DNA from: Trypanosoma brucei
Lineage: Eukaryota
DNA length: 64,000 bases
Assembly (NCBI GenBank): GCA_000002445.1
Contig: CP000071.1
Span: forward strand, 288,001-352,000
Direction: 5' to 3'
Shown here one piece after another: positions 517 through 25,272 of the stretch (position 1 is the stretch's first letter; each line of letters starts with the position of its first letter). Position numbers and translations under genes: made by a program. The notes under the pieces are model-generated. The model saw only the letters and a list, made by a program, of their open reading frames with translations. It was not told where the DNA came from and searched no databases.

Positions 517-555
517 CTCTCTCTTGGATGTGGAAATCTTGGAATGATGTTTCGT

Positions 556-588
556 CTACAAAATGGTAAGGAAAGATAGCAACAAAAG
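556..588 (-). promoter_or_regulatory. Polypyrimidine tract plus candidate AG spliced-leader acceptor upstream of the gene B start. The same element recurs at ~10983..11015 and ~21378..21410.
   Basis: The minus-strand sequence cttttgttgctatctttccttacc is followed by attttgtAG about 40 nt upstream of the ATG at 516. This is the typical kinetoplastid trans-splicing signal arrangement. This is inference; there is no RNA evidence. Confidence 0.35.
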
Positions 589-900
589 TTGATACTATGC
601 ATGAAATGACACGGAGAAAATGAGACCAACTGGAAGCCATAATTAGTCACTTATGCACAAGGCACAACATCTTTACGGAAAACACAACTAAAGTCGTTGA
701 CATACATGGACTACACAACACAGAAGCAGTGATGTATATGACAGTATGCCTCAGTCACACTTCCATATGTGCATGCACGCTCATAAGCATTGCCAACTTT
801 CTTGTTGTTCGTATCTTATCCATTCATAAAACATCCCCAACAGAGTGGCATCCATTGACAGCATGCGGTAATAAGTGCCTCCAGCAGCTGTCAGACAAGA

Positions 901-7494: not shown

Positions 7495-9521
7495 ACGCTA
7501 CAACAACCTTCTCAGTACTCGCTTATTCCCTTTCTCTCAACGTGTATGCCTTTATGCTCTTGCAGAAAACTATTTACGGTGTGCGTATTCGCCAACCCGC
7601 GTAAACCTAAGACGATTGTGCACAGACTCCTCTGTCTCTGTCTCTCACACTAGTTCCTTACCACGCGACCCGTTTAAGAGGGAAGTGGCTAAACTATGTA
7701 AGGTGCTTATGGAATTACTACGGTACTGACCTTCACTTATCTTCGTGTACTCCGTTTAACTTTCAATTGCCCCTCCGCAGTGATGAACTCTTTTGTTTGA
7801 TTTCTTCTATGGTTGCTTCTATCCTCAGTTACTATGAAGATACAGCTGTATCTATTACCTCCGTTACTCGACAAAAATGTTTCCCCGGTGAAAAAGGGAT
7901 GTGCCTCTATGGATATACAAATGTATGAGTCCACAAATGTATGGATATGCAGGTGTAGAAAATATGCGACCCTACACGTACAGCTTTTCTATGTAACGTC
8001 CTGTTGAAATGGTCCTCGTTTACTCTTATTTGTGCTTTCTCGTATCGTTGTCGATCTCCTTCCCGTTCCACAACAGACTTTTCTCGCAATATCGCTCGCC
8101 TGTGTATCGGTAAATCAATTCACAAAACACCTTTATGGTAGGAACGGTATATCAAACTGATGAATATTTAGTGTGCGAAGCTTGAGGCTACGCTACTGAT
8201 CAATGCGGACAACACGTCGGGCAGAAAACTACAGAAACTAAAACAAAAGGGCTAAAAATGCGGTAAAAAAATCTATAAACCTATGTAAATGATGGTAGCG
8301 ATATATTGTCAGAGCTGCTTCGCGAAACAGAAATGGCAACTGAATGGCTAACTAAAAAAAACAAAAAAGATCTAGCAGTAATATCGCGCTGCTTCTGCAC
8401 AACGTCTAAAGTGTGATGCACGGAAAGGAAGTAGTTTTTCAAGAGAAGTGCACACAAAATGGTAAGCACATGGGTGAGGAATGCGCTCCATAGACATCAA
8501 TGAATAAACCCCGCGCACACAAGCAAGTGAAACGACATATCAAAAGAAGTTACAATGCAACACTTAAAGAGTACAACATGTGCTGGTGAAGTAACAAAAC
8601 CCACACATTCACTTTTTAAAAATGGTCAAAAGATATAATGCCCCTGAATTTATTAAGAAGAGGTGGGCATCAGGGTAGCACAGGCGGATACAACTCCAGG
8701 CCAAGAGGGCAACAAAGACATATGAACTGCAAGTGCAAACAATTACTATAATGTTTTACATTTAGCAACCGACACACTATAAATGACCACAAGGGACTTT
8801 AACATGTCCCCGATAGATCCACCCACAATCGCTAAACGAAGTAATTCAAGCGAGCACATAAACTCACGGCAACATTCCAAGCGTAGCAAACACAATGTAG
8901 TGGAGAGCAGACGTACAGCACCTGGAAGGCGCCATCTCAAACTCGGTACTCACTAATACATACCACACAGCTGCACAGTTCAGTCATATAATGAACATTA
9001 AACGGTTATATATATAATAACTGCTACAATAAGGAAAAAAAGGGAGGGGGGAAAGGGAAGCAATTATGAAGTCAAGACTAAATTAATACTTTACATACAC
9101 AGCAGAGAATTGCACAATCTGTAAAGCGCTCACACATGTAAGTATACACAAGAAGGAGTAAACACTAAAATGAAAACACGGATGAAAATAATGAAGAAAC
9201 GCTAACGCACCTGCTCACCAACACAACATAGCAGTCTACATTGCTGTATATGTGATGTGCATAAAATGTCGAGAAACTAGGAACAAACACTAAATAAAGG
9301 TACCAGAATAGCCATGCCGATACTTTAAAAGAAAAAAAGAATTTATAAAAAAATATATTAGGATCATGATTAGCATATAAAAGTGAAAACGCTATTGAAA
9401 ACAATGGCAACGATAAAACCATAACGAGAAGCCTTAAGTAACACCCAACAATGACACGTTTGCGTGTATGTAATCCCTCACGCTAATCCTTGGCTGCTAC
9501 ACCGAAACGGTACTACTTGGA

Positions 9522-10943
9522 CTACAAAAGACCAACTAATGTGAAAGTAAGGGAAAATAATAATAAGCGTAAATTGTGGTTCTTATTGCTTGCTGCACTT
9601 CCCATTGAAGACAAACGACCTTCACCAAACTCGATCAGAGAAGCAACTCCAGCCACCTCCATCGTTTTATTCAGTTTGACCTCTTTTCTCCGCACGGCAA
9701 TGCTGGCAATAGTAATCAGCTGTGTGGATGTATTCAGATCTTCAAGCATATGAGAGACCACACGTGTGTCACTCTCCAGTCGCTCCGAGAGATTTGGAAA
9801 GTTGTCCATAAGTTTCTTCCTCATATCATCCAGAGATTTGGGTGTCACCACCCAAGCTGTTCCCCCGCACACCTCAGCAGCCTTCTTTGCTTTCTCATCT
9901 GCAGCATTTCCAGCTATCTTCCTTAGCGTATTTTCCATGAGTGGTAGGTAATGAGCCCTTATACTTTTGAGATTCCTTGCATACCTGCTTACCTTCTTAA
10001 ACACATTCTGTGCTTTACTTACTGCTTTCGCAACCTCAGCAACGGCCCGCTTCACCTGATCCATGTGTCCCCCCGGACGCTTTGCATCCGCTTGGCTCCG
10101 TTCCTCCACTTTAGAAACCATTGCAGAACGGCTCACAGCTTGCTCCGTGAATGCGTCCACTGCACCTTTTAGGCCTCTGTACTGCTCAACCATCAAACAC
10201 ACTGCTTGTGTCTGATTCAGAGTAAGATTGTACTTTCTGGTGATAGAGGCCTTTGTTCCCTCGACCAGTTCCTTCACCGTAGACTCACCTTTGAGCGCCA
10301 CCGACCTCCAAGTAACGACATTGTAGAGCACAAACTCCAGCTTCCACAGCTCCCCGGAACTTTCCCGGGTGTCATCCTCCAAACCTTCCGAAGCACCCTC
10401 AGGTAACGTACTAAACAACTCCAACAGCGTACCGTTAAGGGAATCGGAAGACACGCTTTCAGCAGCTCCCTTGCATTTTTCAGCCGCGCTCCTGACTCTC
10501 CAATTGGAATTGTGTCCTGCCACCTCCTTCAACATGCGCTCTAACGCTGCTACACGATTGCTCCTGATCTCTTCAATATTCTCCGCCCTAAACTCAGTCT
10601 CAATGGATGCGGTTTCAGCTTTCTTGGCGGCCTCAGTAACGTTGGAAGCAACACGCTTCGCACGCTCGACGGGATCGGTGGCATTTCTGTTCTCCCACAA
10701 GACATCCTCAGCCAAAGTTACATATTCATCACTCCGAGTCTTGGCATTCGATATCTTCAATGATTCGGTAGTTATCCAATATTTTAGGTCACGGACGGCA
10801 TCTTTCAGTCCCCTGAACTGCTTCAGAGCATTACACAATGTAACAGTTTGCTCAAGTGTAAGATTATTGTTCTTACCAACAGCAAATGGCATGCACAGGA
10901 GTACAACTGCTGTGAAACAGGTGAATCGTGTCATTTGGCTCAA
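9522..10943 (-). CDS. Gene B copy 1: a 473-aa Ala/Lys/Glu-rich secreted glycoprotein with a predicted C-terminal GPI-anchor signal (…SAASNKNHNLRLLLFSLTFTLVGLL). It consists of two homologous ~205-aa halves.
   Basis: There is an N-terminal signal peptide and at least 7 N-x-T sequons. The internal repeat NLTLEQTVTLCNALKQFRGLKDAV (res 27-50) pairs with NLTLNQTQAVCLMVEQYRGLKGAV (res 239-262). SLNGTLLELFSTLPEGASEGLEDDTR (~res 167-192) pairs with SLDDMRKKLMDNFPNLSERLESDTR (~res 371-395). The composition suggests a helical-bundle fold like the trypanosome VSG/HpHbR/GARP-type surface proteins, but that is inference only. Confidence 0.8.
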   Translation of the reverse strand: MSQMTRFTCFTAVVLLCMPFAVGKNNNLTLEQTVTLCNALKQFRGLKDAVRDLKYWITTESLKISNAKTRSDEYVTLAEDVLWENRNATDPVERAKRVASNVTEAAKKAETASIETEFRAENIEEIRSNRVAALERMLKEVAGHNSNWRVRSAAEKCKGAAESVSSDSLNGTLLELFSTLPEGASEGLEDDTRESSGELWKLEFVLYNVVTWRSVALKGESTVKELVEGTKASITRKYNLTLNQTQAVCLMVEQYRGLKGAVDAFTEQAVSRSAMVSKVEERSQADAKRPGGHMDQVKRAVAEVAKAVSKAQNVFKKVSRYARNLKSIRAHYLPLMENTLRKIAGNAADEKAKKAAEVCGGTAWVVTPKSLDDMRKKLMDNFPNLSERLESDTRVVSHMLEDLNTSTQLITIASIAVRRKEVKLNKTMEVAGVASLIEFGEGRLSSMGSAASNKNHNLRLLLFSLTFTLVGLL

Positions 10944-11327
10944 CTCTCTCTTGGATGTGGAAATCTTGGAATGATGTTTCGTCTACAAAATGGTAAGGAA
11001 AGATAGCAACAAAAGTTGATACTATGCATGAAATGACACGGAGAAAAGGAGACCAACTGGAAGCCATAATTAGTCACTTATGCACAAGGCACAACATCTT
11101 TACGGAAAACACAACTAAAGTCGTTGACATACATGGACTACACAACACAGAAGCAGTGATGTATATGACAGTATGCCTCAGTCACACTTCCATATGTGCA
11201 TGCACGCTCATAAGCATTGCCAACTTTCTTGTTGTTCGTATCTTATCCATTCATAAAACATCCCCAACAGAGTGGCATCCATTGACAGCATGCGGTAATA
11301 AGTGCCTCCAGCAGCTGTCAGACAAGA

Positions 11328-14300
11328 TTAGTTGTGCGACGAATCACATGAGAGAGAAACATTGCTTTCCTCATCGTGATTGGGATACGCCTGCGCTTCG
11401 TCGACGGATGCCGCATGCGGATTATGAAAAGGTGGTGTGTCGTATACAGGCAGCACAGTGACTCCTTCACCGTCAACATGGGTGTGCCCGCTGTAATTTA
11501 TAGTGTCTCTGCCACGAGTCGCAGTTGAGTTGAAGGGAAGCACAACGGCTTGGGGTAGTGGTAGAGGAATCGAGCGCATGGCCTGCTGCAAACGGACATA
11601 ATCACTAAACTCGGCATCAACTATCGCCTGCCACTCCTCTTCCTCCCAGTTCACGAGCCGCATACGCCGCCCAGCCTCGCTTTCAAGCATAAACGTCGAC
11701 TCCTCGTAGAAGTGCTGTGTAGTGGTGTAACTCATCATGTCATAACTCGTGAGCCGCGACGTATCATGAACGTCCGTCGACATCTCTGACATGGTATCAT
11801 GAACGGAAACCTCGATTTCCTCACGTGTTTGCGATTGCAAGCGCCGACGCTGTGAGGCACGCCTCATATAAATGGCATTCAGCAGGTCCGGGTGATCTGC
11901 CGGTACAGTCACAGGTATTGGATTGACATTCACACCCCTGCCAGTCGGACCCTCATACATGCTGAATTCTCCACTGTAGTCAAATTGTAGTTCCAGTTCC
12001 TTTGCATCCACGCGGATACGCTCAATACCGTCTGTAAAGACAAGCGCCATGTTGTAGCGGTCCCTCGCCTCCTGTAATGCGATCTGATCACGATCATCAC
12101 ACTCTTGCTCCTCGACAGAAGTCCAGTCCGCCCTCCCAGGAAAGTCACCGCCCCACGCAAAGTCGTCAACACCCGATGTCATGCCATCGATCATCGTCCT
12201 CGCGGTGGTATTGGTATTGGGGGAACCATCACCAGAGTAGAACCCCAGAAGCAGTGGGTTGTTACCGCTTTCCAAATATTCGGGGTCGGGAGATGTTCCA
12301 CTGATACAAGACATGTCGAGATTGTCCAGCTGCATCTTATCTGCAACGACAAGTTGTCGCTCCTCCTTCTCCTTAGAGCAGCATCGTCGCAAAAAGCACA
12401 CGGCAAGCAACAACAGCAGCAGAAACAGCAACACAGCTGCCACAATAATGGCAATCACCGCCCCCATTCCCAATGGACCCCAAGCAGACCCACCACATAT
12501 ATCCCCACTTGCCTTCACATTACCCAAAGTAACGCAGTAGGTATTGTCTGTGAGGTCCCATGCGCAAACACTGAACTCCGTGCCCGCGGGGTAGTCTCTA
12601 ATTTTGTTGTGGTTCATCCTCAACTTACACTTGCCATCTGAGCCCTCACTGGCTTCCCCGACGGTGACGCCCTTGTCAGTGGGGTTGCAGCAGTCACCCT
12701 TGATCACACGCACAACCGTCTGGCGGTGGGAAGAGTCCGGTGCACGGCACGACTCGAGTGGTGTCACCTTACAAGGTTCCACTATCGAAGGAAATACACT
12801 GACGGGTGGAATGAAGCGGAGGCTAGAGCTCAAAGGGACACTGACGACTGAACGGTTGACAGGAGTGGTAGCGCAGAAATATATCGAGTCCGTACCATTT
12901 TGCGCGGTAACAGAAACACGGCGGGCGCTTGCCGCGTCATCATCACCCACCAGTGCCCAACTTCCATGTGATTCATTTCGACGCAGGCAACTTCTGTCTG
13001 TGCTAAAACCGGGAAGCAAGCTCTCAGCATACAGGTCGTCCATCAAGTACAGAACGCCAGGAACACCAAGAAGGACGTCTCTCCCACGAATATTGTAATA
13101 CGTAGGGTCAAATGTCTCAATCTGCGCAATCGGGAGGAGCTGCTTTGCCGAAGCAACACGTGCTGCTATCCCATTAGCGCTTATTTTCACAATTTTGGGA
13201 CGCGTCGCACTGCCGTCAAAAACCTCCTGGCAGAGCGTCCACACACCCGCGGATGGTAACCCGGCCGCATTCACGTTCTTGAACGATATATTACCACGCG
13301 CCTCCTCGTCAGTCGTAAAGAATGGCACCACGTCCTCACCACCACAGGAAGCATCTCGCCGCAGACGAAATGCTGAGTTTGGCGACAGAGGAATGTACAC
13401 CTCTGCCTCCGTCCCCAGAACAAATGACGACGGAAAGATGATATCAGTAGAAACCTCCACTTCCGATACAACACTGAGGTTCCCGGCGGGGGTCCCAACG
13501 CACAACGACACGGAAGGCAACCTCCCTGGAATGAAGGTCGGACCCAGTACAACGCTGCCGCTCGGCCGCACGTAACCCACAGAGTTCCCCGTCAGAGTGG
13601 TTGCGCACGCATTTTCGGAGAGATATACGCCACGAAAGTCGGAGTTGTGTAGATACGCAAGTGGGTTCTCTGCGTCTTCCCCGGGCACTAACGAGTACAA
13701 TGGCTTTGCTCCAGAGACCACAGGTGTCTGCAGTTTTGCGTGAAACCGAGCAGTGGGAACCGCCGCAGGATCGATCTTCTTCACGATGGGCGGAGTTATG
13801 ATGAGAACCTCCGCTACTGGTATTGGAGGCGAGGTGGGTTGTTCCCCCAATACACATACACATTTCACGCCTGAGATACCTATTAGCGTAACCGCCTCCT
13901 CAACTGGGGTCTCTGCAAGACCGGGGGCCGCCACAATCTTCTCGCCACACACCGCGCAATCGCTTAGGTACGTGTCCGGTGTTCGGGTAGCGTAGTTCAT
14001 CACTAAGTTCGCAGGCCCTAGCACCTCGCTGTCGCTATCCACACGTCCATGAATGCTAGGGTTCACAACACGGAAGTTTTCCACTGAAAGCGTCGGGCCA
14101 TCTGTTGTGAAGACATACCCAGGATCCCTTATTGTGTGTGTACACACATAAAACGTAAGATTCCGATTGTACCGTGGCGTCATTGTGGCTCTGCTCTGAC
14201 TAAGTACTCCATTGCAGTCACTCCTTGTGGAAAGAAAGGGACTGGTAAGGATCGCCTTGTCAATGCCATAGTCGGTTACTTGTTTCGCTGGAAGCGCCGT

Positions 14301-17300
14301 CACCGGCCGTACCGCAGGCTGCTTTCCACCGGGGCATTCATCTAAGTGAATCAGTTGCATAGTCCCACGCATAACATACCCACCGCTTTCCCCACGCTCA
14401 CAATAGTACACATCTGTCAGATCACGGTTCCGGTATTTGCACTTATCCACATGCAGCGTTGACATAGAGTTGGCTATGACCGTGTCGTACTCACTCAAGA
14501 TACTGTCAGTACACGCTTCTAAGGTGGAGATCCTCACCCTCCCACTTTGAATGCCACTGGACTCCACGGTCACACTGCGACCTGCAATAATCGTCGCAGG
14601 AGTCATGTAGTGAAAAATATTGAAAGTAGATGCAGGCAACTTATCATACGCAGAAATACCGACACACACCCTGGCACCCTTCGCCACAGCTGGCGTCTTC
14701 ACAATGGTAACATCCTTACTGTGTTCGCCGGAAGCAAAGGGAAAACTGTCATACGAAGCATTCGCCTCTGTGCAGTTAAGCTCTGGGGGGACAATGTAAA
14801 CGGTGAGATTCGACGCCCCTATATGCAAGCTACCCCCATCAAGGGTCAAGCGAAGAGGTGTGTGCTTCCGTACGAGTGACACATTAAAGGACGCCGTAAA
14901 CGGGTTAATCACCTTAAGGGGCTTCTGACCAACAGCAACTCCCAAACGCCGCTCATCCTGCTGACACAATGCATATTCGCCTAGTAGAACATCCTCCAAG
15001 GGAGTAGTTGGCCCAGTGTAGTAGCGCTCAGTCGCCTCCTCACAAATCCTTGCATTCAGTGGGACTTTGCAGGAAGCGGCGTTGACACAGCGCACGAGGA
15101 ACAAAGATGCCTTCTTAAGCAGCGGTCTTGCCACAAAATTATTCGTTGACCTACGGACAGCGTACAGAGAATCCACAGCAAAATCCTCAGCACTTACCTT
15201 CCCTCCGTACAAGTAATACGATTCATTGGTATCACCCCACCCCACGCAAACATGCAGTTCGCCAGCCTTCTGAACCACAAAAGGTTCTGCACTCCCACTT
15301 ATGGGGTCAACCCAACCCTCACCGTACACCCTAATGCCACCACCGGGGGCACTTTGGCACGACTCAATGCTCTCGCTCACAAGAAAGCGTGTTGGCTGCA
15401 GCGCAGTCAGCGCCTCTCCTCGAAACCTCATGCTGAGGGGAAGACCAACAACGCCAATAGGTGAATCCGGCACAAGCTCTAGCTGCTGCTGTGACTGAAT
15501 TAAACCTACATCTTCGTATCCATTCCCCTTCCACAGGCATACCTTCCATTTCTTCATACCAACAGCTGTGTAGACCACATACGCCGGACCCACTTCAGTA
15601 ATTCTAATAGCAACGGCAGTACCATCATCCACAATTTCGCCACAGTTCACATCACTCGTTTCCTTAAAAAGCACCTTCAGACCTTTGAGGGAGGTCTTAT
15701 CAGGTACAATAAAATTGACTCGATTGCTTACGCCAACGAACACGGTCCTGGGGAATACCTCCACATCGGAAACAGCTAACATACCCGATACCCTCACTTT
15801 CCAGGCACCCCCATCACTGTCATGGTAACCAACACATACGTACACCTTGCCAACTGTGTTGCGCATCACCGTCACGGACGCCTCCCCTTCAGCCGTTGCA
15901 TTTACCTCAGAAATGGATGGTGTGCAGCTCTCACTTTCACTGAACACTATGGGCGCCTCAGGCGGTACGGCGGACACCTTGACGGGTGTACTGACACCTT
16001 TTACAATGGAAGCCGGCGACAACTCCGCAGGACCGTATACCATGACATTCCCAACGTTCGAATAGGGGCGATTCACAGGATGTTCCGTGCCCGGTGTCTT
16101 CACACACAGCACATGTCTACCCGCAGTAGAAAACGCAACGCCGTACAGGGCAGTTGCATTCATGGAGTATGTCTCCCCGACTGGTGTAAGGCAATTATCC
16201 AGGGAGAAATACCCGGTTGTTCCTGCCTTGAGAGTCACGTTGGCATCAAGATGAATCGTCTCAGCCACACCCACGAAAAGGGTCCGGTGTTTCAGTTTGT
16301 ATCGCCGCGTCGCAATATTCTTCACAGGGTAGGTATATCCCTCGTCAGGTTCCTCGTCCGCTTGTAGGTCGACAGATGAGGGAGTCGCGACACACAAAGT
16401 CATGTTCGGGAGTGCGTCCTCAGGAACTCGAAACGTGACAGAACTTGCGCCAACTCTCACATCACCTTTTGAGTTGAGTTCCTCACACTCCGGGGTTACC
16501 GATAAACCAACCGTTATCACACCACTCCGCCCCGCATTGTGGCCGCTCAACAAAACCGTCAAATCAAGTCCACTGATCACGTTGGCTTCATCAAATGATA
16601 CCGTCGGTGGCGGCAGAACTGTCACAACAGCCGCACGCGCCTTGGGGTATGCAGTCGTGCTCCCCTCAAGACACGCGTAGTACGTACCTGAAACAGGTAA
16701 GGCAACTGCACCCCCATCCGAACGCGAGCGACGCTTCTTTACTGGGGGGCCCCGATATTGGATTCCTGATGGACCATCCACACGCACAGCCCCTGTACAG
16801 TTGGAATACATGTAGAAATCAAGCACCAACTTCACATCGTTAGCAGCTGCAGTCGCTGCATCCATTGTATACTTAATGCGAGTCCCGTACCCACTGTATA
16901 GGGTCCGTGGCTGAACGCCGTACTCCCGAACAGTTACCTTGTTCTCAGATGGTGAATATAACCTGCCACCCTTGTGGTAGGGCCAACCATTACACAGAAA
17001 ATAGTCACCTTTAGGCACAGAAACCTCCATATTAACAACCTGCAACGTTTCCCCACCCACGGGGTCCTGAAGGATCGGATCACATATGGGTGACTGAGAA
17101 AAAGTTGCCCACACGAGGTTGCCTACAGCCTCCAAGCGAAATGTTTCGTTCGTGTGCCGAAGTGCATCAGTGTTGTTCGTGTCATAACGTGGCACAGCAA
17201 GTAACACAGAGGCAGGAACGACGAAAGTTTTGCCATCACTCGTGGGTACCTTAGCACAAAGATAAATTACGCTTTGGACACTCCGTGTCACTCTCACCTC

Positions 17301-17921
17301 CCGGTTAGAACCCAGTTCGGCAGGTGGCAGACCTTGAATCATGCTCACGTCGTCACAGTTTTCATTGCGGTGAAATGTAATGAAGGTTCCAACAGGCACT
17401 GCGTCGCCGAATCGAATAGTGTTGTCAACATCACGTTTCAAATAGCGTGGTATGGCTTCAACAAGGCTCAGCTGCACAGACAAAGAAAGGGAGGGAAACG
17501 CATCACCAGCACATATATACACTTCACGTACTTTCGTATCGTACCACGGGTCAATGCCCACATCATTGCTCGTAACCGTGAAATTACATGGCGCATTCTT
17601 GGATATTTTGCACTTGGAGCCAATGATCTGTGTATTGTCACATGTACTCATACGCGAAACGAAAATATCTGCTTTGATACTCTGGTCCGTCGTTTCCACA
17701 CTGAACGGTACGTTCACCAGCGGTTTGTTAGGTCGTAACACAAGTGATGCAGCTCCACTGCTGCATAAAAACGTTGACGACACGATGCACAGAACTGAAG
17801 CCCAAAAAGTAAAGGGCACCTTACAGCAATGTCGGTAACGTGGAGATAGAGAGGAAGCATGGCTGGTACCTGTGCCACAGTGGGTTGAGTCCCTTCTTAG
17901 AAACATTTGCATAAATACCAA
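11328..17921 (-). CDS. Gene A copy 2: a 2197-aa type I transmembrane modular surface protein. It differs from copy 1 by one residue (SPLCDPIL versus SPICDPIL).
   Basis: The ORF is identical in length and frame to 901..7494 at an offset of 10427. Confidence 0.85.
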   Translation of the reverse strand: MVFMQMFLRRDSTHCGTGTSHASSLSPRYRHCCKVPFTFWASVLCIVSSTFLCSSGAASLVLRPNKPLVNVPFSVETTDQSIKADIFVSRMSTCDNTQIIGSKCKISKNAPCNFTVTSNDVGIDPWYDTKVREVYICAGDAFPSLSLSVQLSLVEAIPRYLKRDVDNTIRFGDAVPVGTFITFHRNENCDDVSMIQGLPPAELGSNREVRVTRSVQSVIYLCAKVPTSDGKTFVVPASVLLAVPRYDTNNTDALRHTNETFRLEAVGNLVWATFSQSPICDPILQDPVGGETLQVVNMEVSVPKGDYFLCNGWPYHKGGRLYSPSENKVTVREYGVQPRTLYSGYGTRIKYTMDAATAAANDVKLVLDFYMYSNCTGAVRVDGPSGIQYRGPPVKKRRSRSDGGAVALPVSGTYYACLEGSTTAYPKARAAVVTVLPPPTVSFDEANVISGLDLTVLLSGHNAGRSGVITVGLSVTPECEELNSKGDVRVGASSVTFRVPEDALPNMTLCVATPSSVDLQADEEPDEGYTYPVKNIATRRYKLKHRTLFVGVAETIHLDANVTLKAGTTGYFSLDNCLTPVGETYSMNATALYGVAFSTAGRHVLCVKTPGTEHPVNRPYSNVGNVMVYGPAELSPASIVKGVSTPVKVSAVPPEAPIVFSESESCTPSISEVNATAEGEASVTVMRNTVGKVYVCVGYHDSDGGAWKVRVSGMLAVSDVEVFPRTVFVGVSNRVNFIVPDKTSLKGLKVLFKETSDVNCGEIVDDGTAVAIRITEVGPAYVVYTAVGMKKWKVCLWKGNGYEDVGLIQSQQQLELVPDSPIGVVGLPLSMRFRGEALTALQPTRFLVSESIESCQSAPGGGIRVYGEGWVDPISGSAEPFVVQKAGELHVCVGWGDTNESYYLYGGKVSAEDFAVDSLYAVRRSTNNFVARPLLKKASLFLVRCVNAASCKVPLNARICEEATERYYTGPTTPLEDVLLGEYALCQQDERRLGVAVGQKPLKVINPFTASFNVSLVRKHTPLRLTLDGGSLHIGASNLTVYIVPPELNCTEANASYDSFPFASGEHSKDVTIVKTPAVAKGARVCVGISAYDKLPASTFNIFHYMTPATIIAGRSVTVESSGIQSGRVRISTLEACTDSILSEYDTVIANSMSTLHVDKCKYRNRDLTDVYYCERGESGGYVMRGTMQLIHLDECPGGKQPAVRPVTALPAKQVTDYGIDKAILTSPFLSTRSDCNGVLSQSRATMTPRYNRNLTFYVCTHTIRDPGYVFTTDGPTLSVENFRVVNPSIHGRVDSDSEVLGPANLVMNYATRTPDTYLSDCAVCGEKIVAAPGLAETPVEEAVTLIGISGVKCVCVLGEQPTSPPIPVAEVLIITPPIVKKIDPAAVPTARFHAKLQTPVVSGAKPLYSLVPGEDAENPLAYLHNSDFRGVYLSENACATTLTGNSVGYVRPSGSVVLGPTFIPGRLPSVSLCVGTPAGNLSVVSEVEVSTDIIFPSSFVLGTEAEVYIPLSPNSAFRLRRDASCGGEDVVPFFTTDEEARGNISFKNVNAAGLPSAGVWTLCQEVFDGSATRPKIVKISANGIAARVASAKQLLPIAQIETFDPTYYNIRGRDVLLGVPGVLYLMDDLYAESLLPGFSTDRSCLRRNESHGSWALVGDDDAASARRVSVTAQNGTDSIYFCATTPVNRSVVSVPLSSSLRFIPPVSVFPSIVEPCKVTPLESCRAPDSSHRQTVVRVIKGDCCNPTDKGVTVGEASEGSDGKCKLRMNHNKIRDYPAGTEFSVCAWDLTDNTYCVTLGNVKASGDICGGSAWGPLGMGAVIAIIVAAVLLFLLLLLLAVCFLRRCCSKEKEERQLVVADKMQLDNLDMSCISGTSPDPEYLESGNNPLLLGFYSGDGSPNTNTTARTMIDGMTSGVDDFAWGGDFPGRADWTSVEEQECDDRDQIALQEARDRYNMALVFTDGIERIRVDAKELELQFDYSGEFSMYEGPTGRGVNVNPIPVTVPADHPDLLNAIYMRRASQRRRLQSQTREEIEVSVHDTMSEMSTDVHDTSRLTSYDMMSYTTTQHFYEESTFMLESEAGRRMRLVNWEEEEWQAIVDAEFSDYVRLQQAMRSIPLPLPQAVVLPFNSTATRGRDTINYSGHTHVDGEGVTVLPVYDTPPFHNPHAASVDEAQAYPNHDEESNVSLSCDSSHN

Positions 17922-19949
17922 ACGCTACAACAACCTTCTCAGTACTCGCTTATTCCCTTTCTCTCAACGTGTATGCCTTTATGCTCTTGCAGAAAACTAT
18001 TTACGGTGTGCGTATTCGCCAACCCGCGTAAACCTAAGACGATTGTGCACAGACTCCTCTGTCTCTGTCTCTCACACTAGTTCCTTACCACGCGACCCGT
18101 TTAAGAGGGAAGTGGCTAAACTATGTAAGGTGCTTATGGAATTACTACGGTACTGACCTTCACTTATCTTCGTGTACTCCGTTTAACTTTCAATTGCCCC
18201 TCCGCAGTGATGAACTCTTTTGTTTGATTTCTTCTATGGTTGCTTCTATCCTCAGTTACTATGAAGATACAGCTGTATCTATTACCTCCGTTACTCGACA
18301 AAAATGTTTCCCCGGTGAAAAAGGGATGTGCCTCTATGGATATACAAATGTATGAGTCCACAAATGTATGGATATGCAGGTGTAGAAAATATGCGACCCT
18401 ACACGTACAGCTTTTCTATGTAACGTCCTGTTGAAATGGTCCTCGTTTACTCTTATTTGTGCTTTCTCGTATCGTTGTCGATCTCCTTCCCGTTCCACAA
18501 CAGACTTTTCTCGCAATATCGCTCGCCTGTGTATCGGTAAATCAATTCACAAAACACCTTTATGGTAGGAACGGTATATCAAACTGATGAATATTTAGTG
18601 TGCGAAGCTTGAGGCTACGCTACTGATCAATGCGGACAACACGTCGGGCAGAAAACTACAGAAACTAAAACAAAAGGGCTAAAAATGCGGTAAAAAAATC
18701 TATAAACCTATGTAAATGATGGTAGCGATATATTGTCAGAGCTGCTTCGCGAAACAGAAATGGCAACTGAATGGCTAACTAAAAAAAACAAAAAAGATCT
18801 AGCAGTAATATCGCGCTGCTTCTGCACAACGTCTAAAGTGTGATGCACGGAAAGGAAGTAGTTTTTCAAGAGAAGTGCACACAAAATGGTAAGCACATGG
18901 GTGAGGAATGCGCTCCATAGACATCAATGAATAAACCCCGCGCACACAAGCAAGTGAAACGACATATCAAAAGAAGTTACAATGCAACACTTAAAGAGTA
19001 CAACATGTGCTGGTGAAGTAAAAAAAACCCACACATTCACTTTTTAAAAATGGTCAAAAGATATAATGCCCCTGAATTTATTAAGAAGAGGTGGGCATCA
19101 GGGTAGCACAGGCGGATACAACTCCAGGCCAAGAGGGCAACAAAGACATATGAACTGCAAGTGCAAACAATTACTATAATGTTTTACATTTAGCAACCGA
19201 CACACTATAAATGACCACAAGGGACTTTAACATGTCCCCGATAGATCCACCCACAATCGCTAAACGAAGTAATTCAAGCGAGCACATAAACTCACGGCAA
19301 CATTCCAAGCGTAGCAAACACAATGTAGTGGAGAGCAGACGTACAGCACCTGGAAGGCGCCATCTCAAACTCGGTACTCACTAATACATACCACACAGCT
19401 GCACAGTTCAGTCATATAATGAACATTAAACGGTTATATATATAATAACTGCTACAATAAGGAAAAAAAGGGAGGGGGGAAAGGGAAGCAATTATGAAGT
19501 CAAGACTAAATTAATACTTTACATACACAGCGGAGAATTGCACAATCTGTAAAGCGCTCACACATGTAAGTATACACAAGAAGGAGTAAACACTAAAATG
19601 AAAACACGGATGAAAATAATGAAGAAACGCTAACGCACCTGCTCACCAACACAACATAGCAGTCTACATTGCTGTATATGTGATGTGCATAAAATGTCGA
19701 GAAACTAGGAACAAACACTAAATAAAGGTACCAGAATAGCCATGCCGATACTTTAAAAGAAAAAAAGAATTTATAAAAAAATATATTAGGATCATGATTA
19801 GCATATAAAAGTGAAAACGCTATTGAAAACAATGGCAACGATAAAACCATAACGAGAAGCCTTAAGTAACACCCAACAATGACACGTTTGCGTGTATGTA
19901 ATCCCTCACGCTAATCCTTGGCTGCTACACCGAAACGGTACTACTTGGA

Positions 19950-21338
19950 CTACAAAAGACCAGTTCCTAGCAAACACACCAGAAAAGACGCAAATGCTAT
20001 GGGTGTAGTAGTAGGAGAGTAGTCGGTCTCTCGGTTTAATTTTAATTCGGCAGCTTGAGCGTACTGCATCGCGGCATTGAGTTGTTTGTATTCCCTGTGG
20101 AGAATAGTAAGACTTTCGATCAATTTCGCCGTATCTTTTTTTAGTCTTTTGGAAGATTGGGCGGGAATGCTGTGGAAAAGCCCATTTTTTGTGTCCTCCA
20201 GAGATTTAGGTGTTACAACCTCGGCCGTCTCTCTGCATGCCTCAGCAGCCTTCCTTGTTGCTTGTGAGGCGGCGTATTGAGAAATCGACAAGAGTGTTTT
20301 TTCAAGGGAACCTGCATATGCGGCTGCAACAGATTTCATATAAACCGAGTGACCTGTTAAAGCTCGATACGCTTTTTCCGCCGCCTCGGCAGCTTCCGCA
20401 ATTTCATTAACAGTCTCCCTCACCCGCTGCGACAAGAGCTTGCCTTTGCCATCCTCATTTGCCTCTTCCGCGAGCTGAACAACATTATCACTCCTTATTT
20501 TAGCATCAGCAGCCTTTTGGGCCATGGTCTTGGAAATTTCTTCAATGTTGCTGACAAAAATGGGTAGTGCCCTGTACTGTTCAGCGGCAATACACAATGC
20601 TTGTGTCTGTTGTAGTGTGAGATTGTACCTCTTTCCGTATGCAGACACAGCTTTTGTAACAGCTTCCCGAACCCTAAACTCAGTATATTCCGCATTTATT
20701 TTTATTTCGACAAGGGATTGGGCTGCGCCCTCGAGTTTGTGGAGTTTGTTGGAAGCGTCGCGGGTAGCTTCCTTCAACCTCTTAATCGACTTCGCAGGGA
20801 AATATTGCAACATATCGTCCAGCGCATGTATTAGAGATTCAACGGTCACATTTTTAGTGGTTTTGTTGCATGATTTTGCAACCCCTTTCACCTCTACAGT
20901 TCCTCCTTCGTTCCCTAACTTCTTCAATGCACCCTCAAGCGAGGGTACGTAGGCGCTACTGATGGTTCCAAGAACTCCGGCATCAACATCAGATTCCAAA
21001 ATCACAATTTCCGCTTTTTTAACGGCCTCAGTAACGTTGGCAGCAAGAACTCTGGCTCGTTTTTCTAGAGCCTTAGCCTTTGTGGTCGCCTGAGCGGGCT
21101 CTTTAACACGCCTCAACTGTTCATCACTCCGAGTCTTGGCATTCGATATCTTCAATGATTCGGTAGTTATCCAATATTTTAGGTCACGGACGGCATCTTT
21201 CAGTCCCCTGAACTGCTTCAGAGCATTACACAATGTAACAGTTTGCTCAAGTGTAAGATTATTGTTCTTACCAACAGCAAATGGCATGCACAGGAGTACA
21301 ACTGCTGTGAAACAGGTGAATCGCGTCATTTGGCTCAA
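19950..21338 (-). CDS. Gene B copy 2: a 462-aa paralogue of B1. The first 73 residues and last 3 residues plus the stop are identical, but the central ~385 codons are different. They are homologous but strongly diverged, and 11 codons shorter. It has a predicted GPI signal …TTTPIAFASFLVCLLGTGLL.
   Basis: The DNA is identical to B1 from the ATG (21338) down to 21120, then diverges over 19963..21119, then is identical again from 19962 through the stop and 3' flank. Internal two-half repeat is preserved (KRYNLTLQQTQALCIAAEQYRAL; SLIHALDDMLQYFPAKSIKRLKEATRD versus SLEDTKNGLFHSIPAQSSKRLKKDTAK). Confidence 0.8.
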   Translation of the reverse strand: MSQMTRFTCFTAVVLLCMPFAVGKNNNLTLEQTVTLCNALKQFRGLKDAVRDLKYWITTESLKISNAKTRSDEQLRRVKEPAQATTKAKALEKRARVLAANVTEAVKKAEIVILESDVDAGVLGTISSAYVPSLEGALKKLGNEGGTVEVKGVAKSCNKTTKNVTVESLIHALDDMLQYFPAKSIKRLKEATRDASNKLHKLEGAAQSLVEIKINAEYTEFRVREAVTKAVSAYGKRYNLTLQQTQALCIAAEQYRALPIFVSNIEEISKTMAQKAADAKIRSDNVVQLAEEANEDGKGKLLSQRVRETVNEIAEAAEAAEKAYRALTGHSVYMKSVAAAYAGSLEKTLLSISQYAASQATRKAAEACRETAEVVTPKSLEDTKNGLFHSIPAQSSKRLKKDTAKLIESLTILHREYKQLNAAMQYAQAAELKLNRETDYSPTTTPIAFASFLVCLLGTGLL

Positions 21339-23463
21339 CTCTCTCTTGGATGTGGAAATCTTGGAATGATGTTTCGTCTACAAAATGGTAAGGAAAGATA
21401 GCAACAAAAGTTGATACTATGCATGAAATGACACGGAGAAAATGAGACCAACTGGAAGCCATAATTAGTCACTTATGCACAAGGCACAACATCTTTACGG
21501 AAAACACAACTAAAGTCGTTGACATACATGGACTACACAACACAGAAGCAGTGATGTATATGACAGTATGCCTCAGTCACACTTCCATATGTGCATGCAC
21601 GCTCATAAGCATTGCCAACTTTCTTCCCCGACTAACCAGGAGCTCTGTAGCAAACACAGTAACTATGATGTCTCGCAGTCAATGACCAAAATAAAAAATA
21701 AAAACAAACGCGAGAGGTCTGACAGACCTTTTCCCCCCATATTTTTTGGATCAACGCAATCACGCAAATTGGGCGCATCAACCGCACGATAGGAGAGCAT
21801 TCATAAGTGGAACTGCACCAGGCTCTGTTGAAAAAAGAAAAAAAAGAATGGTCATTTAGCATTTCACGGCACCCCGTGTCGGAAGAAAAGCACAATTCAA
21901 GGGCAGTTGATCGTCACCACCACCCTCGCTAGAGGTCATCTTGAATTTTGTTGGAACCCGCACATTTTTTCGTGCAGCGCTTATCGATTTACAAGCCCTT
22001 ACGCGTTTCTTCACCCCACAATGTTGCGACGTTGTGTTATTCTTGTTGATTTCATTGTGTGACCCAACATCGTTCTTAGCTTCGTGACAACACGGTGTAG
22101 TGCACCAGTAATGAACGTGTTGGTTTCGCACATTTGCACACAGCCTTGGCTCGCGCTCCACACATCTCTCATGTGCCGTTCTTTTCTCGTTCATAACTGT
22201 TTTTGTGTTAAAACACCTGCATATATTTTTGAAATAACCTTAAGTAGTTACCGGTCAACTCGAGGCATTCATCAGAGCCGTTGCGCGTGGGAACTGAATA
22301 TATGTTGATTACATCAGCGTCCGTAAAGACGTTAAAGTTTCGGCAACGGCGTAACTGTGGGGAGGACCAATCCTACTGAAATGAATAACGCAGATATAAG
22401 ATGTGTTGTTACTCACGACACTTGGTTCATGTCAACCTAGCAGAAAAGGCAAAGTAAAAAAGAGAAAATAACAGACCGAAACAGAAAAGTGGATAATGGT
22501 ATAAAAAAGTTGGCAGTGTGAATGTTGTGGGGAGAGGGAGGTGGTGCCAGCATTGAAACGGAACGTGGGCTTGCGCTACGATATGGTTAGGCATTCCAGC
22601 AAATGCTGCCTAAGACTTAAATTGTAATGCCAAGAAACAAAAATGGATTATTGAGAAGAGACGAGAATGCAGCATAAATTGAATTGAAGGCACCAAAGCA
22701 AATAAATTTCTGCATGTGGGTGGGAATACTCCTGACTTGAGGTATCGCGGTGGCCTGCTGCAACCCTTCACTATACGAGTGACAGTGCGCGCAACGTATC
22801 TTTTCTTGCGTCGAAGTCTTTCTTCGATGCAGTCGCCAATGAAAAGAACTGAAGTTAAAAACTGCACAAGAACGAGCCTACACCGCGCTACAGGGGGGGA
22901 CTTTAAAATGTGGTACAGATAACTAAAAAAAGAAGTAAACAAAAGAAACGGGAGGAATTCAAGAAACAAAAAGAAACGAAAAGAAAAAGCGGAGAGTAAT
23001 CTCCCATCATAACATTCGTCTTCTCACCAAGCCCAAACGCTTTCTTTCCCCCTTTCATTGCCCTTTCTCAACAAATTTTTTCACCTGCGGTCCTTCACAT
23101 TACATACGACCCCATACCGAGCTCCAGCATCTACAAAAATTGAAAACAAAACAGAAGAAAAGAAAAATAGAAAGAAAAAAGAAAAAAAGAAGGGGACTTG
23201 GTGCGCGCCGTCATTGTTCCAAGTTACCACGCGCAGGTATATCCGTTTTGGCATAAAGTTGCTAGTTGCAACTCGAAATGTCCCTTTTTCACAGGTCACT
23301 CTTATAGCCCCTTTCCCCCTTGTCGGCTCTCATCGCCCCCCACCCCACCCTCCCACTGTCCACCGCATAATGTTTGACACCTACCCCACTGCACTGTTTG
23401 CCGTCACATTCACCTTTTAGTCTCACTGTTGTGTTCGTGGGGGGAAAAAATTGAGAAAACATA

Positions 23464-25272
23464 CTACGCTCCACCGCAGAAACGCCTCACAATTTCCTCC
23501 ACGTCGTTGGCAAGCTTAGAGGATACAGCGTGAGTTGCGGCCTCTGCATACACACGCACAATAGGCTCAGTGCCACTGGGACGCGCAAACGCCCTTGCAA
23601 CCGTTGCAGATGAGGGAGTTGCTTCATTGGCAGCCGCAACCGCGGCGTCAATGGCCTCCTGCAACCCTGGTGGAGTTAGGGCCCGTCTTTCATCTTGTGT
23701 GTTTGTTATCACTTTGGGATTCTTCACTTTCACTTTAAGCTGAGTCGATGGGATGTCAGTGTACAAACGGAGCCACGAGTCGAAGCTCATTTTGTGAGCC
23801 AACAGTATCAATTCGCAAGCAAAGACGTTGGCAATCGCATCCCCGCAAACTTGAGAAATGAGCCTTGGGAGCAGTGAAAGCACGTGTCGTGTTTTCGATG
23901 GAAGGGAGGGGACCTTCGCGTCAATCGCATCCCCATTAAGAAGAATAGTACCGTGGCCGTTGGATTCAAAGTACGCACCAATGTCGCATTTATGTGCTAT
24001 CGGATGTAGGTTTTTCACTCCAGTTTGGGATGAATATGTCCGCAGCCCAAGCCCACGTTGGATGTAGTCTGTCGATGCGCCGTTGGCGTACGCCGTTTGT
24101 ACCACTCCAACGTCCAACAACTTCAGTGCCTCACCACCAATCCACTCACGGACGGAAAGCGCGTAAAGAATGGAAATACGGTCCCCGTCTAGTAGACGCC
24201 AAACATCCTCGCCAGTTTCCCTGTCGTGAAAAAAAGCCACAACACGGTCGGCATCCCCATCGAGGGAGTAGTAATGCACCTCCTCATTCTTATCTGATCT
24301 TCGTTTTTCATAAGCCGCAGCCCATTCCTTCGTATCGTTCGAAGGGTATTGTGCCTTCTGAGTGTAGTCAGCACCACACATGTAGTTGAGGGCGTTGATA
24401 TCGTCGACGTTATCATGTAGAACAGTCACGTCAAAGAACTCCTCGAAGACACCTGAGGTCACCTCCTGAGCACATTTGAGAAGTGACTTGAGGGCAACAG
24501 CACCAACGCCACTGGCGGCGTCGATCACAATCTTTTGCCGTTGCCGCGGATTTGTACCCCCATTTCCCTCCGTCACAAACCGCAGCAACTCCCCTAATGA
24601 ACCAAAAACCTCTTTTGCGTATAGCGCCGAGGTGAAGTCAGCGGGTTTCATTGCTCCAGGCCCCGTAAGTTGCTCCCTGTTTGCTCGTCCAACCAAATAG
24701 TGCAACTGAGGAGTAGTAAGCACACCATGATCAGCATAGGTCACACCGATCGCCTGTAAAGAGGAAAATATGGCGCTCAAAATGTCCACACCTGTTGGGC
24801 GTGTATCCCTCGATAGGTGAACCGCACCAAACGGGCAGCGAATCTTCACATCCTCCGGTTTTGGTTGTTCAAGGCCGTGCAAATTGATACAATCATTCAA
24901 AACTTTCAAAAGTTCCTCACCTGTGGAGGCGTTGGCCGCCTGAGTGCATGTGGTCTCCCATGAAGTCTCCAGCATGCCACCATCCACATCAATCAGCTTA
25001 AGACCATTGTCCCCACAAGGGTTATGAGACGCCGTGACCATGCAGCCAACCGAGCAACCGTTCAACCCGCCAAAATTCCCTTTTTTGATGGCCCACCACA
25101 CTCGAAGGACCGCAACATAAACAACACGAGAGGCCACTGGGGGCAATAACGTGCCAATTGTACGGAACCCCGATGTGCCGTATGGCATGGGGTCCACGCG
25201 AGCATCGTGCAGCAGCGGGTACTTCGCAACCGCGGCACAAATCGCATCCGCAACCGCAGCCTGCAGCACCAT
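23464..25272 (-). CDS. PAGM: Phosphoacetylglucosamine mutase (PAGM/AGM1, alpha-D-phosphohexomutase family)
   Basis: Active-site Ser loop TASHNPCGDNGLKLID, metal loop DGDADRV, sugar-binding FESNGHG and phosphate-binding RPSGTEPIVRVYAEA all match AGM1-type enzymes. The product is 602 aa. Confidence 0.93.
   Translation of the reverse strand: MVLQAAVADAICAAVAKYPLLHDARVDPMPYGTSGFRTIGTLLPPVASRVVYVAVLRVWWAIKKGNFGGLNGCSVGCMVTASHNPCGDNGLKLIDVDGGMLETSWETTCTQAANASTGEELLKVLNDCINLHGLEQPKPEDVKIRCPFGAVHLSRDTRPTGVDILSAIFSSLQAIGVTYADHGVLTTPQLHYLVGRANREQLTGPGAMKPADFTSALYAKEVFGSLGELLRFVTEGNGGTNPRQRQKIVIDAASGVGAVALKSLLKCAQEVTSGVFEEFFDVTVLHDNVDDINALNYMCGADYTQKAQYPSNDTKEWAAAYEKRRSDKNEEVHYYSLDGDADRVVAFFHDRETGEDVWRLLDGDRISILYALSVREWIGGEALKLLDVGVVQTAYANGASTDYIQRGLGLRTYSSQTGVKNLHPIAHKCDIGAYFESNGHGTILLNGDAIDAKVPSLPSKTRHVLSLLPRLISQVCGDAIANVFACELILLAHKMSFDSWLRLYTDIPSTQLKVKVKNPKVITNTQDERRALTPPGLQEAIDAAVAAANEATPSSATVARAFARPSGTEPIVRVYAEAATHAVSSKLANDVEEIVRRFCGGA

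Follow-up and report, generated by a model that had tools for sequence, protein, structure and literature searches.

Recombination, mosaic genes and concerted evolution are the rule in tandem gene arrays of Trypanosoma brucei (PMC1855330, PMC2854126), and the PGK A/B/C array has a chimeric middle copy (PMC1855330; PMC2854126). These arrays consist of head-to-tail paralogues in one polycistron, with abrupt identity switches within coding sequences. Copies within a genome are closer than subspecies orthologues, and unit numbers differ between T. b. brucei and T. b. gambiense (PMC1855330; PMC2854126). One reported unit of 10,346 bp occurs twice in T. b. brucei and once in T. b. gambiense (Tbg972.8.540; PMC2854126, Table 1). 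This 10.3-kb duplication is already published; its entry gives 'unique isoforms 0', and Tb927.8.970 is absent from it (PMC2854126). The literature searched contained no description of Tb927.8.970 as chimeric in structure.

The Fam50 proteins GARP, BARP, CESP and MISP have a GARP domain, a three-helix bundle, a signal peptide and a hydrophobic tail; they are encoded in tandem arrays and expressed in salivary glands (PMC3605285; PMC10089363). Within Fam50, the chromosome 8 array studied here makes up clade 'ii', whose sister is T. congolense CESP (PMC3605285; PMC10089363). In segmental gene conversion of VSG genes, recombination boundaries lie in or near the coding sequence of the surface protein, and conserved flanks are used. 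In Plasmodium falciparum, msp1 and msp2 are dimorphic allele families with conserved flanks. The locus described below resembled each of these systems in part.

The window, a stretch of 64,000 nucleotides, was from chromosome 8 of T. brucei brucei TREU927. It contained a chromosome-internal array amid housekeeping genes, in which B genes alternated head to tail with the flagella-connector gene FCP1, all on the minus strand. The minus-strand gene order was PAGM, B2 (Tb927.8.970), FCP1, B1 (Tb927.8.950), FCP1, B0 (Tb927.8.930). B2 was the transcriptionally first gene of the array, as the initial annotation had held. PAGM is a unique gene upstream of the array and marked array position 1 in all strains compared; it was also upstream of the first B gene in DAL972 and IVM-t1. 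The features, in window coordinates, were as follows.

1 to 507, minus strand: B0 (Tb927.8.930), first 169 codons only, truncated by the window start
298 to 9534, minus strand: 9.2-kb shared block, copy 2, with the B1 3' end, intergenic sequence, FCP1 and the B0 5' block (298-803)
901 to 7485, minus strand: coding sequence of the FCP1 copy Tb927.8.940, within copy 2 of the shared block
9522 to 10934, minus strand: B1 coding sequence, Tb927.8.950, 470 aa, by exact look-up
9535 to 10724, minus strand: alpha core of B1, 1,190 nt
10725 to 19962, minus strand: 9.2-kb shared block, copy 1, 99.916% identical to 298-9534, with the last 13 nt of B2 coding sequence, 3' UTR, intergenic sequence, FCP1 and the B1 5' block (10725-11230)
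11328 to 17912, minus strand: coding sequence of the FCP1 copy Tb927.8.960, by exact protein look-up (PMC6529878)
19950 to 21329, minus strand: B2 coding sequence, Tb927.8.970, 459 aa from the annotated ATG, by exact protein look-up
19963 to 21119, minus strand: beta core (B2 codons 71 to 456), the divergent block, 1,157 nt
21120 to 21625, minus strand: shared 5' block at B2, 506 nt, by self-BLAST
23464 to 25272, minus strand: phosphoacetylglucosamine mutase (PAGM, Tb927.8.980), with Pfam AMG1/PGM domains

In the window, B0 showed the shared 5' part followed by alpha core (1-297), and the full-length B0 protein was of the alpha type along its whole length.

B1 and B2 were compared by self-BLAST and in base-level views. 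The switch points annotated initially (9535/10724 in B1 and 19963/21119 in B2) were exact, with identity ending within one base at both junctions, and the B2 core was 33 nt shorter as described (1,157 versus 1,190 nt). The 5' block at B2 comprised 296 nt upstream of the ATG, which included a polypyrimidine tract and AG splice-acceptor region, and 70 codons common to the B genes, which encode the putative signal peptide and the first bundle's helix 1. An earlier count of 73 shared codons had begun at a TTG; the annotated ATG (21329 in B2, 10934 in B1) is three codons downstream. Complete identity of this flank held between B0 and B2 (298-803 and 21120-21625, 100% by self-BLAST) but not between B1 and B2 (10725-11230 and 21120-21625, 99.6%), where two mismatches in 506 nt were found, one synonymous in codon 2 and one in the 5' UTR. 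The ends of the 5' block were sharp both upstream and downstream and were kept in the alignment with DAL972.

On the 3' side, identity started 13 nt before the stop and spanned FCP1, with 8 differences in 9,535 nt. Window positions 1-9534 and 10428-19962 were 99.916% identical by self-BLAST; the two copies differed at window positions 126, 502, 621, 2263, 6660, 8592, 8595 and 9104. This identity had been taken for the end of a cassette, but it ran for 9.2 kb through FCP1 to the next B gene and was a tandem repeat unit. B and FCP1 are unrelated and alternate, so one homogenised 'flank' is a 9.2-kb block, unlike in known T. brucei arrays. In DAL972, the genome in which the 3' flank of the terminal copy (B0 position) was read, the terminal B copy had only about 117 nt in common with the internal copies past the stop codon. 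The short 3' block was therefore 130 nt long, with 13 nt of coding sequence and 117 nt of UTR. A conserved GPI-signal end had also been proposed: the last three codons (GLL) and the stop were shared, whereas nearly all of the putative GPI-signal peptide was inside the divergent core. No divergence gradient was seen near the boundaries. A microhomology-mediated junction was considered; base-level views of both boundaries showed no distinctive sequence.

The alpha and beta cores had 575 mismatches in 1,122 aligned nt (48.8% identity, codon alignment). Identity at third positions was 38.5%, dN was 0.74 and dS was 1.56 in the same alignment, and the core proteins were about 30% identical. The mismatch contrast between the flanks (2/506 and 8/9,535) and the core (575/1,122) was highly significant (Fisher P <= 2e-117). 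Saturated cores (dS about 1.6) beside flanks of about 100% identity are an extreme contrast, which distinguishes the B genes from known T. brucei arrays. The alpha genes of T. b. brucei and T. b. gambiense had a dS of 0.022-0.025. Judged by these dS values, the cores are about 60 times older than the subspecies split, and the flanks are as young as the split or younger. A brucei/congolense pair of orthologues from this protein family was taken as a rough yardstick, and the identity of alpha and beta was lower than that of the pair (about 30% versus 42% aa).

An abrupt identity change between paralogues, as found here, is characteristic of gene conversion or unequal crossing-over in a tandem array. 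Because the cores are saturated, the results supported recent recombination (gene conversion or unequal crossing-over) as the only process that fits so abrupt a fall in identity, from about 100% to 49%, within a coding sequence. The segmental recombination suggested initially was thus upheld. Divergence of the core in situ, under selection and with conserved ends, was considered and rejected, as UTR and synonymous sites of the flanks were identical and core third positions were saturated.

The proteins were assigned to a kinetoplastid surface family, in agreement with the initial annotation. Both had two stretches matching GARP (PF16731), with 391 bits for B2 (E 1e-117) and 232.8 bits for B1 against a Pfam gathering cut-off of 27.4, and each had two GARP-type three-helix bundles. 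The AF2 model of B2 was all helical (mean pLDDT 77.6), with predicted helix 1 at residues 27-74; it was built on a shallow alignment (5 sequences, pTM 0.50), and the arrangement of its two domains is uncertain. A Foldseek search of the PDB with this model matched the structures 5VTL (MISP), 6XZ6 (factor H receptor, FHR) and 2Y44 (GARP), with E about 4e-6 to 7e-6 and target TM-scores of 0.84-0.86. The elongated three-helix-bundle fold is thus predicted for B2. The Fam50 relatives recovered have one GARP bundle, unlike the B proteins, which carry two in tandem. The B array also consists of two deeply diverged isoforms, in contrast to the near-identical copies of Fam50.

B2 had a putative signal peptide at the N-terminus and a hydrophobic C-terminal tail, both hydrophobic ends being visible in the sequence. 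A GPI anchor was predicted by two predictors for alpha (.930/.950; PMC3378594), and beta was termed GPI-anchored in PMC8483307. Alpha and beta are T. brucei-specific surface proteins, probably with a GPI anchor. Tb927.8.950 was salivary-gland specific by RT-PCR (PMC3378594), and in strain EATRO1125 both genes were up-regulated in tsetse salivary glands as compared with proventriculus, with a log2 fold change of 1.5 for.950 and 2.7 for.970 (PMC8483307). Salivary-gland forms can make two two-bundle GARP-family ectodomains that are about 30% identical. The two genes have the splice site within the trans-splicing region, the signal peptide, the first helix and the proximal 3' UTR in common, so they are probably co-regulated.

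Alpha and beta were mutually closest relatives and the sole two-GARP-domain proteins found, and so have a two-domain ancestor in common. Apart from the alpha cluster, a full HMMER scan of 1.84 billion representatives gave only four Fam50 proteins, all distant and with a single domain. Homology searches with beta, an alpha/beta profile and FCP1 gave T. brucei-group clusters only, and they recovered neither CESP nor an FCP1 orthologue from T. congolense. The 90% cluster of beta has an unrelated 56-aa peptide as representative, by which beta is obscured in searches.

The junctions were then compared in other strains and assemblies. In a T. equiperdum OVI contig, the beta core was 99.8% identical to that of TREU927 (2 of 1,157 nt differed); the contig ran through the 3' junction and held 32 nt of the 5' block before the same 5' junction. 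The long-read assembly of T. b. equiperdum IVM-t1 showed the unique upstream region, the 5' block and then 35 consecutive beta-specific sites. Its position-1 core had 104 alpha/beta switches over 436 informative sites and 204 gap positions, with 78% identity versus 99.2% in the flanks, and the indel load was limited to the core segment. A true alpha/beta mosaic or a pseudogene at IVM-t1 position 1 was rejected on account of the 104 switches and the local indels, which indicated a collapsed-consensus artefact. Two Logan contigs with FCP1 ended short of the B genes.

It is very improbable that the structure itself is an artefact, with the identical flanks or the extra unit arising from a collapsed or mis-joined repeat on TREU927 chromosome 8. 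The boundaries do match repeat edges, draft-assembly copy number in such arrays is admittedly unreliable (PMC2854126), and the IVM-t1 assembly is garbled at this very locus. Nevertheless, the beta core was an intact ORF with full GARP domains, the repeat copies bore private differences, and RNA-seq reads from another strain gave.970 a fold change unlike that of.950 (PMC8483307). There were no N runs in the window, and the loci compared were also gap-free. Both junctions recurred in independent assemblies, those of T. equiperdum OVI and IVM-t1, which largely disposed of an assembly join as the source of the boundaries, the condition under which the initial annotation would have given up its reading.

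In T. b. gambiense DAL972, position 1 had an alpha core, preceded by the unique upstream region and 5' block also present in TREU927. Its array lacked one 10,395-nt unit of the TREU927 array, including one FCP1 copy, and the junction fell inside the shared 5' block; such variation in unit number is a property of tandem arrays. The absence of beta was observed in one draft assembly, scaffolded on TREU927, and its authors noted that repeat copy number can be arbitrary (PMC2854126). Across the strains, TREU927 and OVI carried beta at position 1, DAL972 carried alpha, and IVM-t1 showed a blend. Because beta occupied position 1 with the same boundaries in OVI and at least partly in IVM-t1, the beta-first arrangement is probably the more ancient one.

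The two DAL972 alpha genes differed from each other at 3 sites and from TREU927 B1 at 14-17 sites. B1 was 99% identical to the DAL972 orthologues, and the alpha cores were about 1% apart between the subspecies. For the alpha genes, paralogues within a genome were thus closer than orthologues between genomes, which is the pattern of concerted evolution. At one site of the 5' block, each genome had its own base in all of its copies, a weak signal in the same direction.

The explanation that we consider likely is that alpha and beta are old paralogues, with flanks homogenised by recombination in the array and cores too diverged to recombine. Homogenisation of the flanks, as opposed to import of the core, is our inference, and so are the limit that divergence sets on the tracts and the order of events given here. 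Gene conversion and unequal crossing-over within the array would hold all pairable sequence near-identical, namely the 5' block of 506 nt, the 3' block of 130 nt and, where copies are internal, the entire FCP1-containing spacer. Heteroduplex would be blocked from the substitution-saturated cores, so that tracts and crossovers would end at the same bases and leave sharp boundaries. The idea that divergence limits tracts comes from the mismatch-repair control of recombination in T. brucei. FCP1-alpha units would be gained or lost through crossovers in the 3' block, which would account for TREU927 having two copies of FCP1. If beta crossed over within the 5' block with an alpha gene downstream of it, the beta-FCP1 unit would be lost and the DAL972 layout would result. 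On the sequence comparison, this single unequal crossover would suffice to explain DAL972 without cassette exchange. The locus would then be a clean case of divergence limiting concerted evolution.

Several points run counter to this explanation, among them the fact that the loss of beta in DAL972 was seen in a single draft assembly. A long-running conversion equilibrium might leave a divergence gradient at the boundaries, which a single recent event would not. The paralogue model has no account of the initial escape of the two cores from conversion. The searches found no outgroup with a two-domain gene, and the shared 70 codons and UTR blocks could originally have been those of alpha or of beta, with transfer in either direction.

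An array that was first all alpha, with a diverged beta donor supplying a new core to its first copy in the brucei/equiperdum lineage, is an unlikely alternative; it corresponds to the cassette replacement of the initial annotation. The route would be gene conversion or a double crossover, with the donor elsewhere in the genome or in another haplotype. In its favour, the same flanks framed alpha in DAL972 but beta in both TREU927 and OVI, and both junctions were sharp; the 5' boundary was also near the end of predicted helix 1, where a modular swap may be structurally tolerable. The donor is the difficulty. Besides alpha, no protein near beta was found in databases including the TREU927, DAL972 and T. 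equiperdum proteomes, and no other beta-like gene was found in the 1.84 billion representatives or in a 5.8 billion-sequence database. Such a donor would itself need near-identical flanks beside a 49%-identical core, so the problem is merely shifted. In addition, DAL972 lacked a whole unit, FCP1 included, instead of having a swapped core at equal copy number, and the near-identity of its two alpha copies (3 differences) suggested that the position-1 alpha is recent and derived. The proposed check of whether cores assort independently of flanks was positive insofar as DAL972 had the same flank with an alpha core, but the difference there was one whole unit, which unequal crossing-over would explain with no exchange of cores.

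The strain distribution of position 1 (TREU927 and OVI with beta, DAL972 with alpha) would also be expected if alpha and beta were long-lived alleles of this position, an ancient balanced dimorphism that we regard as doubtful. Meiotic recombination would homogenise the flanks, and balancing selection would keep two non-recombining cores. The IVM-t1 blend resembles a collapsed consensus of reads from two haplotypes, and the core divergence is very old (about 30% aa versus 42% for the brucei/congolense pair). But alpha also occupies positions 2 and 3, so that loss of a unit yields an alpha-first array without allelism, and mis-piling of reads from the second unit would be an equally good source of the IVM-t1 blend. 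A two-state position 1 in an identical regulatory and signal frame, under balancing selection in the tsetse salivary gland or at transmission, is accordingly an unlikely proposal; under it, T. b. gambiense group 1 would have alpha fixed and some isolates, such as IVM-t1, would be heterozygous. Two very old types within conserved ends, either of which occurs at one position across isolates, recall msp1 and msp2. Unlike msp1 and msp2, alpha and beta coexist as paralogues in one array, and alleles at position 1 are only hypothetical. If true, the two-state position would be a trypanosome counterpart of the Plasmodium dimorphic alleles, in an invariant protein family of the insect stage.

The initial annotation had further proposed a cassette system that generates mosaic variants. 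Only two core types were found, each conserved between strains (beta with 2 of 1,157 nt differing) and the alpha copies homogenising, so the locus is not such a system. There was no credible alpha/beta sub-mosaic, the sole apparent hybrid being the IVM-t1 consensus artefact. The B locus thus differs from the VSG genes, as it has no donor archive, is chromosome-internal, and shows homogenisation rather than diversification as the net effect; no core type besides alpha and beta turned up in any database or strain covered. The half-homogenised pair is real, yet ordinary for trypanosome tandem arrays, and is no new variant-generating system.

Alpha and beta should count as distinct proteins in expression, knock-out and vaccine-antigen work on 'Tb927.8.930-970'. 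If the loss of beta in DAL972 holds in reads, it would be a difference between subspecies in a transmission-stage surface protein, unrecorded in the original comparison. Reads from the shared ends multi-map among the copies, and long-read consensus may silently blend paralogues at this locus, as in IVM-t1.

The window was identified as T. b. brucei TREU927 chromosome 8 by exact protein look-ups. The minus strand carried every long ORF, which fits a single polycistron. In the order of transcription, the genes were as follows.

Transcribed before PAGM, minus strand: housekeeping genes (RRM protein, DnaJ proteins, PFK2/FBPase-like, malonyl-CoA decarboxylase, others)
23464–25272, minus strand: phosphoacetylglucosamine mutase (PAGM), after the housekeeping genes and before B2
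19950–21329, minus strand: B2 (Tb927.8.970)
11328–17912, minus strand: FCP1 (Tb927.8.960), a 2,194-aa membrane protein, between B2 and B1
9522–10934, minus strand: B1 (Tb927.8.950)
901–7485, minus strand: second FCP1 copy (Tb927.8.940), between B1 and B0
1–507, minus strand: first 169 codons of B0 (Tb927.8.930)

FCP1 is a flagella-connector marker (PMC6529878). Its copies (901–7485 and 11328–17912) were duplicated along with the repeat unit and differed at 2 nt (window 2263 and 6660), with L279I resulting from one of these changes. No FCP1 homologue was found outside the T. brucei group by word-indexed search.

The array paralogues were compared by self-BLAST. Positions 1–9534 matched 10428–19962 with 99.916% identity (8 differences). 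The 506-nt 5' block at 21120–21625 was 100% identical to 298–803 and 99.6% identical to 10725–11230. Exactly 9535–10724 (1,190 nt) and 19963–21119 (1,157 nt) were left unmatched, and base-level alignments showed loss of identity within one base at both junctions. The core of B0 and B1 is referred to as alpha, and that of B2 as beta. Mismatches between the cores amounted to 575 of 1,122 aligned nt, with third-position identity of 38.5%, dN of 0.74, and dS of 1.56; the contrast with the flanks was significant (Fisher P ≤ 2e-117). The coordinates, 33-nt length gap, and boundary sharpness reported in the initial annotation were thus correct. Its 73 shared codons were reduced to 70, since it had counted from a TTG that precedes the annotated ATG by three codons. 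Such TTG starts of mechanical ORFs occurred in both B (TTG-to-ATG stretches 10935–10943 and 21330–21338) and FCP1 (7486–7494 and 17913–17921). The 5' ends had been described as 100% identical, but the 5' blocks of B1 and B2 differed at two sites. The supposedly conserved GPI-signal end came to just three common codons within the hydrophobic (GPI-signal) peptide at the C-terminus, and the 3' identity was not a short flank but the entire 9.2-kb repeat unit. The 5' boundary (codon 70/71; window 21120–21122 and 10725–10727) lay where predicted helix 1 (residues 27–74) ends, so the shared part would comprise the signal peptide and one whole helix of the first three-helix bundle. This coincidence may be due to chance.

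The same locus was compared in other strains. The T. equiperdum OVI contig contained a single repeat unit with a beta core, which differed from TREU927 at 2 of 1,157 nt, with junctions identical in place. Since two independent assemblies reproduced the junctions, an assembly artefact there was excluded; artefact as a general explanation is very improbable, with array copy number still assembly-dependent. In T. b. gambiense DAL972, the order was PAGM, B(alpha), FCP1, B(alpha), and ubiquitin-conjugating enzyme, exactly one 10,395-nt unit apart from the TREU927 array. The first DAL972 B had the upstream region and 5' block of TREU927 B2, followed by an alpha core. The last shared only about 117 nt past the stop codon with internal copies (window 9405–9521; DAL972 contig L001 11414–11530) before unique sequence, so the short 3' block consists of 13 nt of coding sequence and 117 nt of UTR. 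The DAL972 alpha genes differed from each other at 3 sites and from TREU927 B1 at 14–17, which points to copies evolving in concert or to a recently derived alpha at position 1 (the first B gene, beside PAGM). The DAL972 assembly had no beta gene (Tb927.8.970 type) and a single FCP1 copy. The lack of beta may be an unrecorded difference of gambiense from T. b. brucei and T. equiperdum, or an assembly omission. If real, it would be a subspecies contrast in a surface protein of the transmission stage.

On chromosome 8 of the long-read T. b. equiperdum IVM-t1 assembly (GCA_003543875.1), PAGM and the 5' block were followed by a 1-kb blended first B (contig L004 3649–4644). Downstream came one FCP1 copy, an alpha-type B, and another FCP1, matching TREU927. 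Over its first 35 informative sites the blended segment was purely beta, and its end was purely alpha; the stretch between them alternated 104 times (436 informative sites in the segment) and had 204 gap positions. The segment's identity was 78%, versus 99.2% to TREU927 in adjoining sequence. A true mosaic was rejected; most likely, alpha and beta reads were collapsed into one consensus, which hints that position 1 is alpha/beta heterozygous or that repeat reads were mis-piled. Ancient allelic dimorphism of alpha and beta at position 1 agrees with this consensus and with the strain pattern, but is unnecessary because alpha is already present downstream in the same array, and is considered unlikely.

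Divergence in place was ruled out, as the cores are saturated and the UTRs and synonymous sites next to them are identical; recent recombination must have homogenised the flanks. Recombination in T. brucei is limited by mismatch repair, and in this array tract length would depend on divergence. The simplest account is partial concerted evolution of the array. Gene conversion and unequal crossing-over would operate wherever B copies still pair, and would halt at the start of the 49%-identical alpha/beta cores. Crossing-over between beta and the terminal alpha within the 130-nt 3' block could generate the extra FCP1-alpha unit of TREU927; one in the 506-nt 5' block could delete the beta-FCP1 unit, giving the DAL972 layout. 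Two points, the occurrence of beta at position 1 in both T. b. brucei and T. equiperdum and the near identity of the two DAL972 alpha copies to each other, make it probable that the beta-first order is ancestral and the DAL972 state derived.

When 1.84 billion representatives were scanned in full by HMMER with beta as query, the only matches were the alpha cluster (42% overall) and four Fam50 proteins with a single domain (24–31% identity). Alpha and beta are therefore mutual closest relatives and the sole two-domain members found. The scan found no further beta-like gene as a possible donor. Import of the beta core from an ectopic donor is thus without a donor, and one with matching flanks would need its own explanation; we regard it as improbable. 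Tb927.8.970 was placed in the 90%-identity cluster of P0005, represented by an unrelated 56-aa ENA peptide (P0006), so beta-type proteins were never returned by homology searches. This is an artefact of the database and could conceal beta orthologues. Amino acid identity between the cores was about 30%, below the 42% seen when the Fam50 'i' gene of T. brucei is compared with its T. congolense orthologue. Unless core evolution is exceptionally rapid, this suggests that alpha and beta separated no later than that speciation.

Tandem arrays of T. brucei are well known for recombination, mosaics, and concerted evolution (PMC1855330, PMC2854126). The T. b. gambiense genome paper tabulates (Table 1) a 10,346-bp unit with two copies in T. 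b. brucei and one at Tbg972.8.540, marked 'unique isoforms 0' (PMC2854126). In the literature searched, only one paper mentioned Tb927.8.970, and neither its chimeric relation to Tb927.8.950 nor its absence from DAL972 was described. The finding is genuine and adds a clean new case to a known process, but does not represent a new type of system; no evidence was obtained for the cassette or mosaic diversification mechanism proposed initially.

B1 and B2 each matched the GARP domain twice. The AlphaFold model of B2 was all helical (mean pLDDT 77.6) and resembled T. brucei MISP, the factor H receptor, and T. congolense GARP (target TM-score 0.84–0.86). In both proteins the GARP bundle was tandemly duplicated (residues about 21–230 and 231–440), with an NLTLxQT...C...QxR motif repeated near residue 235. 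No other relative recovered had more than one bundle, which makes the two-domain architecture apparently specific to the B clade. Alpha was found to be salivary-gland specific, with a predicted GPI anchor (PMC3378594), and both alpha and beta transcripts peak in salivary glands of strain EATRO1125 (PMC8483307). Tb927.8.930 was reported in salivary gland and proventriculus, and Tb927.8.950 in salivary gland (PMC3378594). The short shared 3' UTR (about 117 nt) of the terminal B could underlie this difference.
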